From sequence record ON528737: a stretch of 64,000 nt of DNA; one strand, given 5' to 3'. The translations under genes were made by a program, and so were the position numbers. The notes beneath the pieces are model-generated. The model did not search any database, was not told the origin of the DNA, and saw only the letters and a list, made by a program, of their open reading frames with translations. Shown here piece by piece: positions 47,939 through 50,845 of this stretch. Numbering within the stretch: the stretch's first letter is position 1; each line of letters opens with the position of its first letter. This stretch comes from Shigella phage ESh27.

Positions 47939-48682
47939 TTACCTTAAACGGCCTTTAACATATCCATCTGGGATGGATAACGGATTTACTAATTTATTTA
48001 TAGCCCCGTTATTTACCCATATTCTGCCGGTGGTCGTAGGTTTTACTTCACAACCCTTTCTAGATTTTCTATTAAGTTGGACCATTCCTTTTACAAATCC
48101 TTCAGGCATCGGGTCCTCGGCTGATATAAATCTGTTTTCTTTACCGTTGTTAACACAAATTTTATTTAGAGTTGTAGGATTTTTAGGACCTTTAATTTTA
48201 TCAATCTTTGGCTTTCCTGTACCATACCGCCCGTGGCATGTTGGGTCTTCAGAGTATCGACGTTTATTTGTTTCAGATAGTTTTCTTTTTGTTTCTTCCG
48301 ATCTGTGTTTTCCTAAAAGATTATGACCAAGCCTCTTTATTCGTTCTTTAGCACTATTAGACATTTTAGTCTTATCAGCTTCGGTGTACTTATACCTTCC
48401 ACCTTCACCGCCTTGGCGCATATTATAATACTCGTTAGATTTGACCAAATCCTCTGTTACTAACTGAGCTTCGTATTCTAAAGCTTCAGCGGAAGTTTCA
48501 AATTGTTTAATTATTGAACGTTTAAATGATTCTTCTCCGTATTTTTTGATAGCGCGATTTAAGGCAACACCTGACCCTAGATACGAATCATTTAAATTTT
48601 CTGTAGAATGTTTGCCAATGTACTTTTTACCATTGATTAAATTTACGGTCTCATAAACAAAGTGATACATACTCTTTTCCAT
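47939..48682 (-). CDS. GIY-YIG homing endonuclease (Seg-like, SegE-position)
   Basis: N-terminal YHFVYETVNLINGKKYIGK (GIY-YIG variant), NUMOD-like HSEETKRKLSE repeats, C-terminal RIWVNNG; alternative start at 48670. Confidence 0.75.
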   Translation of the reverse strand: MEKSMYHFVYETVNLINGKKYIGKHSTENLNDSYLGSGVALNRAIKKYGEESFKRSIIKQFETSAEALEYEAQLVTEDLVKSNEYYNMRQGGEGGRYKYTEADKTKMSNSAKERIKRLGHNLLGKHRSEETKRKLSETNKRRYSEDPTCHGRYGTGKPKIDKIKGPKNPTTLNKICVNNGKENRFISAEDPMPEGFVKGMVQLNRKSRKGCEVKPTTTGRIWVNNGAINKLVNPLSIPDGYVKGRLR

Positions 48683-48698
48683 GTAATAAATATAGTTA

Positions 48699-48706
48699 TA
48701 TTTATA
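48699..48706 (-). promoter_or_regulatory. late promoter TATAAATA (Seg-like endonuclease)
   Basis: Reverse-strand TATAAATA 17-29 nt upstream of the candidate start codons. Confidence 0.45.
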
Positions 48707-48719
48707 ATGAGGAAATATC

Positions 48720-49388
48720 ATGATCGATAAAGACTATATTGAAGAGTTACGTGCTCTTTCTGATAAAAAGGAAGCCAAAGCTAAACTGTTCGAATATGCG
48801 AAACAATTTGGCATTAGTGTTAAGAAAACAAAATCATTCGATAATATTGTTATTGATATCGAAGAAGCTCTTAACGCACTGGCTGATGAACCGTTACCTG
48901 AAACTGATGGATTATCTATTACTGATTTAATTACTGCCGCAGATGATGTGGACGGTGTTAATTTCACCAACGAAGAAGTTAAAGAAGAAGCTATTCTGTT
49001 GTTTGATTCTCCAACAGAACAAGTTGAAGTATTAGAAGTTGTCGAACAAGAAAAAGAATTCGACCATGATAAATTTGAAGAAGCAATTACTCAGGTTGTT
49101 GAATCTGAAAAGGAGCCTGAGACAGAGGTAAATAAAGAAGTAAAATTTGTTCTGCCTGAAAATTTTAGTCCTACACTCATTAAATTAGGCAAAGGCCTAG
49201 GATATGTTACTGTTCCTTGGTGGATTTATCAATGGATAGCCGAAACACCTGATTGGAAATCTCGCCCAACCAGTTTTGTGCACGCTTCTGCTCACCAAAC
49301 ATTATTTAGCTTAATTTATTATATTAATCGCGATGGATCAGTTCTAATTCGTGAAACTCGTAATTCTTCTTTCATAACATTAAAATAA
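48720..49388 (+). CDS. inh: putative Inh (inhibitor of prohead protease), by synteny
   Basis: 222 aa, acidic; immediately upstream of hoc as in T4. Confidence 0.5.
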   Translation: MIDKDYIEELRALSDKKEAKAKLFEYAKQFGISVKKTKSFDNIVIDIEEALNALADEPLPETDGLSITDLITAADDVDGVNFTNEEVKEEAILLFDSPTEQVEVLEVVEQEKEFDHDKFEEAITQVVESEKEPETEVNKEVKFVLPENFSPTLIKLGKGLGYVTVPWWIYQWIAETPDWKSRPTSFVHASAHQTLFSLIYYINRDGSVLIRETRNSSFITLK

Positions 49389-49397
49389 GGATAACTT

Positions 49398-50540
49398 ATG
49401 ACATTCACTGTCACGTTATCTCCTTTAACTCCTACAGGGGTTATTGGAGGTTCACAAACATTCACTGCTACACCTGCAGGTGAAACTCCAGATGGTACTA
49501 TTACATATGTCTGGACTGTAGATGATATAGCACAGGAGTCTACGGCTGCTACAATGGATTATACTCTTGCTTCTCCGGCAGGAACAAAAAAAATTAAAGT
49601 GGTTGCAACTAATACACTTTCCGCAGGAGATCCGGAAATAGCTGAAGCGTCAACAACTATCACTGTTAATAAGAAAGAAAATAATTCTACCGTCGCTGTT
49701 ACTCCGGCTTCTCCGGCGGCAGTAGAAATTGGAACAGCAACAACATTCACTGCTAATGTAAGCAATCAACCTAGTGGTGCTGCTATTGCTTATACATGGA
49801 AAGTTGATGGGGTCGCTGTTGATGGTCAAAAGCAATCAACCTTTGAATATACACCAACAACTGAAGGAACTAAGTCTATAACTTGCTCTGTCACAGTGAC
49901 TGCAACTGATTACGTTGATAAAACAGTAGAATCATCAGCGGTTTCTTTGACTGTAAATAAAAAGGCTAATTCTTCAACACTAAAAATTACGCCTGAGTCT
50001 CCGACTACAGTCTTTGGTGTTCCTATTACTTTAACTGCAAATGTCTCCGGTGCACCTTCAGGTGCTACTACATCATTCCAGTGGTCAATGGATGACAGTA
50101 ATATTCCAGATGCAACTTCTGCTACGTATAAATTCACTCCAACCGAGGTCGGAAGTAAAACTCTTAAATGCACCGTATCTGTTTCTGCATCAAATTATGT
50201 TACAAAAGAAATTTCAGCAGAAGCAACAGTAGTAACTAATAATGCTACATTTAATAGTGCCACCATTTCTTTATCTCCCCCATCAGTTAATACTACTGTT
50301 GGTGGAACTGCAACTTTAACAGCATCTGTTACTGGTGCTCCAGGTGATACTAATATTGTGTATTCTTGGAAGAAAGACAACGTAGCAGAAAGTAATTCTA
50401 CTAATACTTACAGTATTGATACCTCCTCAGCTGGTACTCATACAATTAAAGTTGAAGCAGTATTAACTAAAGATAACTATACTTCAAAGACAATTAGTTC
50501 AACCGCTGAAGTTGTTATTGCTGAACGGACTCCAATTGAA
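49398..50540 (+). repeat. four tandem Ig-like domain repeats in hoc
   Basis: Four ~95-aa units each with (T/S)F(T/Q)A..., Y.W... and T..VT/VS..NY/DY signatures. Confidence 0.7.
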
Positions 50541-50813
50541 CCAGAAGGTGAACTACCTTATGTTCATCCTCTTCCACACCGTACTTCAGCTTACATCTGG
50601 TGTGGTTGGTGGGTTATGGATGAAATCCAAAAAATGACTGAAGAAGGTAAAGATTGGAAAATTGACGATCCAGGTAGTAAGTATTACTTGCATCGTTATA
50701 CGCTTCAGAAGATGATGAAAGACTATCCAGAAGTTGATGTTCAAGAATCACGTAATGGATACATCATCCATAAAACTGCGCTAGAAACTGGTATCATTTA
50801 TACATATCCATAA
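49398..50813 (+). CDS. hoc: Hoc highly immunogenic outer capsid protein (4 Ig-like domains + capsid-binding domain)
   Basis: 471 aa; N-terminus MTFTV...TFTATP and C-terminal EPEGELPYVHPLPHR.SAYIWCGWWVMDEIQKMTEEGKDWK match T4 Hoc; four ~95-aa Ig-like repeats. Confidence 0.92.
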   Translation: MTFTVTLSPLTPTGVIGGSQTFTATPAGETPDGTITYVWTVDDIAQESTAATMDYTLASPAGTKKIKVVATNTLSAGDPEIAEASTTITVNKKENNSTVAVTPASPAAVEIGTATTFTANVSNQPSGAAIAYTWKVDGVAVDGQKQSTFEYTPTTEGTKSITCSVTVTATDYVDKTVESSAVSLTVNKKANSSTLKITPESPTTVFGVPITLTANVSGAPSGATTSFQWSMDDSNIPDATSATYKFTPTEVGSKTLKCTVSVSASNYVTKEISAEATVVTNNATFNSATISLSPPSVNTTVGGTATLTASVTGAPGDTNIVYSWKKDNVAESNSTNTYSIDTSSAGTHTIKVEAVLTKDNYTSKTISSTAEVVIAERTPIEPEGELPYVHPLPHRTSAYIWCGWWVMDEIQKMTEEGKDWKIDDPGSKYYLHRYTLQKMMKDYPEVDVQESRNGYIIHKTALETGIIYTYP

Positions 50814-50817
50814 TCGT

Positions 50818-50845
50818 AAGGGGCTTCGGCCCCTTTCTTCGTTTT
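50818..50845 (+). terminator. rho-independent terminator after hoc
   Basis: AAGGGGC-TTCG-GCCCCTT hairpin followed by T-rich tract. Confidence 0.6.

Follow-up and report, generated by a model that had tools for sequence, protein, structure and literature searches.

Does the head decoration protein Hoc of Shigella phage ESh27 carry one immunoglobulin (Ig)-like domain more than its counterpart in phage T4, and if so, where did this domain come from? This question was raised by an open reading frame in a window of 64,000 nt of the ESh27 genome (sequence record ON528737), the whole stretch of DNA analyzed here. The original prediction had interpreted the product as a Hoc protein with four Ig-like repeats, one of them gained by duplication within the gene. 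We therefore examined the identity of the gene, the number of its domains, and the relationship of the additional domain to those of other Hoc proteins.

A known hoc allele at its usual locus

The reading frame starts with ATG, is intact, and encodes 471 amino acids (Table 1). The protein matched PHROG 1149 ("Hoc-like head decoration") with an E-value of 1.9e-136, and the gene aligned to hoc of phage RB69 (NC_004928, 112612-114027) over 1416 of 1416 nt with 97.7% nucleotide identity. The similarity extended to the surroundings: 20 kb around hoc were 97-98% identical to RB69 and relatives, and the gene order uvsW-inh-hoc-24.3-24.2-rnlB-24-23 was that of RB69 and T4, with a homing endonuclease gene (HEG) located after uvsW in the window. 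At NCBI, the entry for ESh27 (P0001) represents the identical 471-aa protein, and its cluster at 90% identity comprises 54 members. These matches, together with a T4-like capsid-binding domain (see below), identify the protein as Hoc, in line with the initial assignment. We thus regard the gene as the known RB69-type hoc of an RB69-like T-even phage and assign a probability of roughly 0.9 to this reading, taken jointly with the function and the allele exchange discussed below. The four-Ig allele is the standard RB69 allele; it has been public as RB69 hoc since 2003 and arose elsewhere than in ESh27.

The gene is flanked by a candidate ribosome-binding site and a terminator-like hairpin (Table 1). 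At the position homologous to this hairpin, the genome of phage DalCa bears an annotated rho-independent terminator. No exact T4 late-promoter motif (TATAAATA) was found on the plus strand immediately in front of inh or hoc; the sequence AATAAATA, which has one mismatch to this motif and is located about 27 nt upstream of inh, was given no weight. The calculated isoelectric point of the protein was 4.80, compared to 4.74 for T4 Hoc, and a published table lists 4.72 for RB69 Hoc (Fokine 2023, PMC10385173). Because Ig repeat arrays can be mis-assembled in principle, we also considered that a repeat had been collapsed or expanded, or that two genes had been fused, by assembly or annotation. The chance of such an artefact appears negligible: the same 1416-nt gene occurs in about 30 independently sequenced genomes, the DNA of its four domains has diverged too far for mis-assembly, and the uninterrupted frame is accompanied by the predicted ribosome-binding site and terminator.

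Table 1. Features of the hoc locus; coordinates refer to the 64,000-nt window
Feature	Coordinates	Strand	Basis and remarks
inh (prohead protease inhibitor), upstream neighbour; proposed to flank the exchangeable hoc segment on its left	48720..49388	+	RB69/T4 synteny
Shine-Dalgarno-like AAGGA (candidate)	49387..49391	+	sequence, inferred; 6 nt 5' of the hoc ATG, overlaps the inh stop codon
hoc CDS, RB69-type allele A-b-C-d plus capsid-binding domain	49398..50813	+	ORF list; 471 aa plus stop
Ig-like domain 1 (D1), cassette A, aa 1-94	49398..49679	+	HMM unit; 62% identical to T4 D1
Ig-like domain 2 (D2), cassette b, aa 95-190	49680..49967	+	HMM unit; 58% identical to T4 D2
Ig-like domain 3 (D3), cassette C, aa 191-285, without T4 counterpart	49968..50252	+	HMM unit; gap in T4 alignment
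Ig-like domain 4 (D4), cassette d, aa 286-380, positional equivalent of T4 D3	50253..50537	+	HMM unit; 42% identical to T4 D3
C-terminal capsid-binding domain, aa 381-471	50538..50810	+	88/91 identical to T4 Hoc 285-376
Intrinsic-terminator-like hairpin AAGGGGCTTCGGCCCCTT with downstream T-rich tail	50818..50845	+	terminator scan, sequence; starts 5 nt past the hoc stop; GC-rich

Four Ig-like domains and a T4-type capsid-binding domain

A domain HMM derived from the Ig units in T4 Hoc and the query Hoc detected exactly four full-length Ig-type units (residues 1-94, 95-190, 191-285 and 286-379), with scores of 114-119 bits for each. In BLASTP comparisons among the four units, all pairs gave E-values between 1e-10 and 1.6e-25, much lower than expected by chance. 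Pfam families Ig_3, I-set, PKD and Ig_2 exceeded their gathering thresholds; the best stretch for Ig_3 and I-set (residues 290-360) fell into domain 4, while PKD and PKD_3 matched residues 103-174 in domain 2. Structure prediction led to the same result. The AlphaFold2 model, computed from an alignment with 37 homologs, exhibited four consecutive all-beta modules of seven strands each (residues 4-91, 98-187, 194-281 and 289-375); pLDDT mostly exceeded 90 across residues 1-380 and was about 90-95 in the strands of domain 1. Foldseek searches with this model retrieved tandem-Ig arrays, such as Dscam1 Ig1-4 and ICAM-5 D1-D4, as well as RB49 Hoc (3SHS; E = 1.4e-10). The presence of four Ig-like domains of about 95 aa is thus confirmed by the agreement of domain HMM, internal BLASTP, Pfam, AlphaFold2 and Foldseek, and the count of four repeats instead of three stands.

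Comparison with T4 located the additional domain. T4 Hoc comprises 376 aa in PDB chain 5vf3_Z and its gene spans 1131 nt in NC_000866, so that the length given in the original prediction was correct. A phmmer alignment to 5vf3_Z (domain E-value 8.9e-84) paired residues 1-191 of the query with T4 residues 1-191 and residues 289-471 with T4 residues 194-376, so that about 97 residues of the query, at roughly 192-288, remained unpaired. With four HMM units against three, the protein indeed contains one Ig domain more than T4 Hoc.

The C-terminal domain had been predicted to be essentially identical to that of T4. This was borne out: T396S, I422T and G426D were the only differences. The domain matched PHROG 21694 (E = 2.6e-40) and aligned to the solved T4 Hoc chains 5vf3, 8t1x and 8t9r. 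Residues W401, W404 and W405 correspond to W306, W309 and W310 of T4 Hoc, for which an aromatic role in capsid contact has been described along with the T4 Hoc structure (Fokine 2023, PMC10385173), and they were invariant among the 37 aligned homologs. The AlphaFold2 model of this domain was poor (pLDDT below 50), probably owing to the lack of variation in this part of the alignment; its fold is therefore assigned from the 97% identity to the T4 domain of known structure.

Ig number, cassette exchange and the origin of the additional domain

To judge how unusual four domains are, we compared Hoc proteins of related phages. Among the best 120 clusters at 90% identity, three length classes were evident, namely 376-379 aa (80 clusters), 468-472 aa (31) and 567-570 aa (9), which contained exactly three, four and five HMM units, respectively; the four-Ig form is hence common among relatives. 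It was also present in Tequatrovirus, the genus of T4, for instance in wV7 (474 aa), WilhelmHis (472 aa) and ECO4 (472 aa). Occurring in RB69 as well as in these phages, the four-Ig feature is not specific to ESh27. A family-wide search with the capsid-binding domain alone against 1.84 billion representatives yielded 138 proteins, in which the number of Ig-sized units preceding this domain, as estimated from length, ranged from 0 to about 15; two units were estimated for 43 of the representatives, three for 19 and four for nine. In the literature, the number of Ig-like domains strung together in Hoc homologs varies and reaches 10 in phage Muldoon (Fokine 2023, PMC10385173), and a two-Ig variant is known from phage phiPNJ-9 (Fu et al. 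2024, PMC11853027). Given that 1-10 Ig domains have already been reported, four is an ordinary step. An explicit domain count for RB69 Hoc was not found in the literature searched.

Clustering of all individual Hoc Ig domains defined a set of cassette types. In this notation, T4 Hoc reads A-B-D and the protein studied here A-b-C-d, with b and d denoting the RB69-type forms of T4 D2 and T4 D3. The commonest architectures were A-B-D (79 clusters), A-B-B-D (29) and A-B-B-B-D (8). Further combinations included A-B-b-C-d (P0002; 567 aa, five Ig domains, 24 members), A-B-b-D (P0013; 472 aa), A-b-D (P0010; 376 aa, three Ig domains) and B-C-d (P0003; 379 aa), which lacks D1. The loci of P0002 and P0010 had an RB69-type backbone and the same neighbouring genes.

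The domain without T4 counterpart, cassette C, was most similar to D2. Identity amounted to 39% to D2 of the same protein, 35% to T4 D2 and 27-33% to the remaining domains. In a tblastn search of the phage collection, C was matched with at least 90% identity in only 30 records, including a 100% identical copy in phiC120; all other matches were below 45% and corresponded to D2 of T4-type Hocs. Neither the phage collection nor the 138 diverse Hoc representatives (50% identity) contained a donor or a relative of C closer than about 44%.

The simplest account of such a domain would be a recent tandem duplication of one of three Ig domains in ESh27 or its immediate ancestors. D3 is indeed nearest to D2, with a BLASTP E-value (1.6e-25) better than those against D1 or D4, and tandem duplication of D2 is real elsewhere: adjacent copies in A-B-B-D and A-B-B-B-D alleles were 74-86% identical, which marks these alleles, as judged from their sequences, as genuine recent tandem duplications. 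In the present protein, however, D2 and D3 share only 39% identity, far from the more than 70% between adjacent middle domains that characterizes A-B-B-D-type alleles. The search for long direct DNA repeats within hoc returned short, low-identity matches only, and we rejected a recent duplication on this ground. Junctions between the domains shared no more than 7 nt of exact identity, and intragenic unequal crossing-over via microhomology was likewise rejected for the RB69-type allele. Moreover, the same allele is found in about 30 genomes including RB69, at 95-98% nucleotide identity. We thus consider a recent duplication very improbable.

A domain tree pointed in the same direction. Neighbour-joining of 24 domains (94 columns, 300 bootstraps) grouped b with B to the exclusion of C in 80% of bootstraps, whereas C paired with its own D2 in only 2%; C, b and B together were monophyletic in 65%. 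The position of C outside b+B suggests an old paralogue of the D2 family, whose branching preceded the separation of RB69-type and T4-type D2 domains, or else one that evolved unusually rapidly after this separation. The gain by intragenic duplication contained in the original prediction is therefore weakly supported, and as a recent event it is not supported; a gain of C, its loss from T4-type alleles and its import by recombination are equally plausible.

Loss would follow an ancient duplication of D2 that preceded the split of T4-type and RB69-type alleles, after which both copies, b and C, were kept in the RB69-type, and the T4-type form A-B-D was shortened. Under a clock-like reading of the tree, the duplication predates the b/B split, and loss of Ig domains does happen, as seen from P0003, which lacks D1, and from phiPNJ-9 Hoc, which lacks D3 (PMC11853027). 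On the other hand, C-like domains were absent from T4-type alleles and from Hocs of other genera, with identities to C being bimodal (at least 90% or below 45%). In addition, support in the tree, which comprises 94 columns, is moderate, and the same topology would arise if evolution had accelerated after duplication. Taken together, we regard an ancient duplication as quite possible, albeit at less than even odds.

Import would mean that C, alone or together with d, entered a three-Ig allele of the A-b-D kind from a divergent, unsampled hoc. Recombination at the level of cassettes is clearly seen in P0010, whose A-b-D architecture equals A-b-C-d with D in place of C-d and with breakpoints at domain boundaries. 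Along its DNA, 97% identity to the window extended as far as hoc nt 567, where D2 ends with the SLTVNKK junction, and resumed at 95% from hoc nt 1141, where EPEGELPY opens the binding domain; a T4-type D3 lies between these points. Cassette d is unusually distant from T4 D3 (42%), and C and d may therefore share a history. Exchange of the whole allele between lineages is seen in DalCa (see below). Yet nothing resembling a donor emerged from the searches described above, and we hold this origin to be unlikely.

Exchange at the hoc locus was apparent beyond P0010. The Tequatrovirus phage DalCa has an inh gene of T4 length, yet carries the RB69-type hoc allele. In 60-nt windows, its DNA was 95-100% identical to our window from about 49280 to 50813, but only 55-78% over most of inh and 40-80% downstream; the last ~100 nt of inh thus lie within the high-identity island common to both phages. 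Conversely, in the Mosigvirus mar005p1, identity was 93-94% up to position 49705 and again from 50538, while the middle was unrelated. The RB69-type hoc allele was detected in about 30 records, as opposed to 151 phage records with RB69-type inh. The type of inh was considered as a proxy for genus, but phage JK45 is filed as Tequatrovirus and yet possesses RB69-type inh and uvsW; we therefore speak of backbone instead of genus where the distinction matters.

These patterns indicate that hoc alleles and cassettes have been swapped between T-even lineages, so that hoc does not track genome phylogeny. From the breakpoints in identity, we infer homologous recombination in conserved flanks as the probable mechanism by which the allele moves, although one of the P0010 breakpoints, with only about 9 nt of common sequence, speaks against it. 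The 3' end of inh together with D1 would serve as the left anchor and the near-invariant capsid-binding domain as the right one. One may go further and suppose that the Ig region of hoc is a hot spot of cassette exchange between Mosigvirus and Tequatrovirus, where in-frame swaps of whole alleles or single cassettes, C among them, during co-infection change both the length (three, four or five Ig domains) and the ligand specificity of the fibre on virions that are otherwise nearly identical, and that C is a distinct adhesion module. We put this forward as a tentative suggestion; if true, C might address a different glycan or mucin target and be more than a mere spacer. Since variation in Ig number is documented, the discovery value of the locus is small, and we consider the cassette mosaicism and the cross-lineage exchange of hoc a modestly interesting by-product.

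Predicted fibre and comparison with known Hoc proteins

By analogy to T4, each gp23* hexamer would receive one monomer at its centre, docked through the C-terminal alpha/beta domain. With a binding domain 97% identical to that of T4, the protein probably sits as a monomer at the gp23* hexamer centres of expanded capsids and is probably dispensable for growth. The four N-terminal Ig beta-sandwiches would point outward as a roughly linear, acidic fibre, which may touch glycans on mucus or bacterial surfaces weakly and reversibly; domain C would add one Ig length, roughly 45 Å, to the ~180 Å of T4 Hoc. Capsid binding, fibre length and the role in adhesion are thus deduced by homology. T-even phages have been reported to adhere to mucus via Hoc (MUC2, fucose), with binding residues that vary with domain architecture (PMC11853027). 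MUC2 contacts in other Hocs have been reported to involve E29 and G33 (phiPNJ-6 Hoc) and S183-L184-T185 (PMC11853027). In the protein studied here, E29 and G33 are present in domain 1, and domain 2 retains S183-L184-T185 within the SLTVNKK junction motif. An effect of the additional domain on adhesion, as had been proposed, is a plausible and reasonable hypothesis. The hoc cassette mosaic offers a natural panel of variants for effects of domain number and type on adhesion. For candidates in phage therapy, mucosal retention may differ between phages that share a backbone and carry three-, four- or five-Ig alleles.

Among known Hoc proteins, that of RB69 (NP_861884.1; NC_004928 / AY303349) is the closest, with 471 aa, the same four-Ig architecture and the same neighbours inh and 24.3. 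It represents the same allele and differs by a few percent of point changes; RB69 lacks the SegE-like homing endonuclease gene found here between uvsW and inh. T4 Hoc (NP_049793; 5VF3, 8T1X, 8T9R) resembles the present protein in locus, in its similarly acidic isoelectric point and in the SLTVNKK junction motif, but possesses three Ig domains (A-B-D) without cassette C, and its D3 is the counterpart with only 42% identity discussed above. At the DNA level, no similarity between the two genes was detectable across hoc nt ~340-1140, while an exact 30-nt match to T4 marks the 5' edge of the capsid-binding domain, at the boundary of the Ig and C-terminal parts. The Hocs of wV7, WilhelmHis/Bas35, ECO4 and UGKSEcP1 (568 aa) share the locus, the capsid-binding domain and the possession of four or five Ig domains. 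In these Tequatrovirus proteins, however, the additional domains are recent tandem copies of T4-type D2, cassette C does not occur, and overall identity to the Hoc described here is about 58%. More distant is RB49 Hoc, whose N-terminal fragment (3SHS) likewise forms a linear string of Ig-like domains (phmmer E = 6.7e-5), but it has three domains, and sequence identity is as low as about 16-22%. A conserved C-terminal anchor combined with a variable number of Ig domains is found again in Hoc of Serratia phage Muldoon (10 Ig domains, 1174 aa), which is distant in sequence (PMC10385173), and in the two-Ig Hoc of phiPNJ-9, which has been described as a domain deletion relative to T4 that lacks D3 (PMC11853027).

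Hoc alleles and their genomic backbones

Alignment of the window (~49280–50813) with the locus of the Tequatrovirus DalCa (L009, 2380–3916) revealed an island of 95–100% nucleotide identity, spanning all of hoc and the last ~100 nt of inh, within flanks that were only 55–78% identical. At the level of sequence, such an island indicates that the whole hoc allele was recently passed between Mosigvirus-type and Tequatrovirus-type genomes. Shigella phage JK45 (MK962757.1, locus L010), listed as Tequatrovirus in the NCBI taxonomy, combined uvsW and inh sequences 97–98.5% identical to the RB69-like window with a T4-type Hoc of 376 aa; either its taxonomy label or its local genome is mosaic. Further hoc alleles with other orders of Ig domain types were found on RB69-type backbones, and the breakpoints in these three alleles (P0002, P0010 and P0003) coincided with domain boundaries.

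Coordinates of hoc alleles on relatives' backbones and of the SegE-like gene (letters denote Ig domain types)
Feature	Location	Strand	Length	Description	Backbone
P0002	L005 6001–7704		567 aa	five-Ig hoc allele, A-B-b-C-d	RB69-type
P0010	L006 6001–7131		376 aa	three-Ig recombinant hoc, A-b-D	RB69-type
P0003			379 aa	hoc allele without D1, B-C-d	RB69-type
SegE-like ORF	window 47939–48721	−	260 aa as listed	GIY-YIG homing endonuclease; Pfam SegE_GIY-YIG

Capsid anchor and split hoc annotations

The last 276 nt of hoc (50538–50813), coding for the capsid-binding domain, were 96.4% identical at the DNA level to those of many T4-type phages (e.g., LF82-1 and LH01) and 85.6% identical to those of T4 itself, while no DNA similarity to T4 was detectable in the Ig-coding middle of the gene. 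A strongly constrained capsid anchor could account for this pattern, as could repeated recombination. Two Hoc-like CDSs were annotated across the hoc region in the close relatives NRG-P0074 (PQ480333.1, H75) and a20 (OQ067374.1, H89). Together with a hoc alignment length of 1417 instead of 1416 nt in NRG-P0074, this annotation suggests that hoc is frameshifted, and possibly inactivated, in both phages. If true, inactivation would fit a dispensable Hoc.

Late-promoter motifs and the SegE-like gene

The T4 late-promoter core TATAAATA occurred 21 times on both strands of the whole window (expected 7.3 ± 2.4), a count matched by 0 of 100 shuffles, with 16 of the 21 copies on the minus strand. The same scan returned no copy directly upstream of inh or hoc on the plus strand. 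One minus-strand copy (48699–48706) lies immediately upstream of the SegE-like ORF, whose Pfam match has an E-value of 8.5e-7. Since the GIY-YIG core begins at M18, the true start of this ORF is probably located at ~48670. RB69 has no gene between uvsW and inh, where the window carries the SegE-like ORF. T4 segE occupies the same slot, flanked by uvsW and inh, and its product is 49% identical to the window protein, which contains an insertion of ~50 aa.
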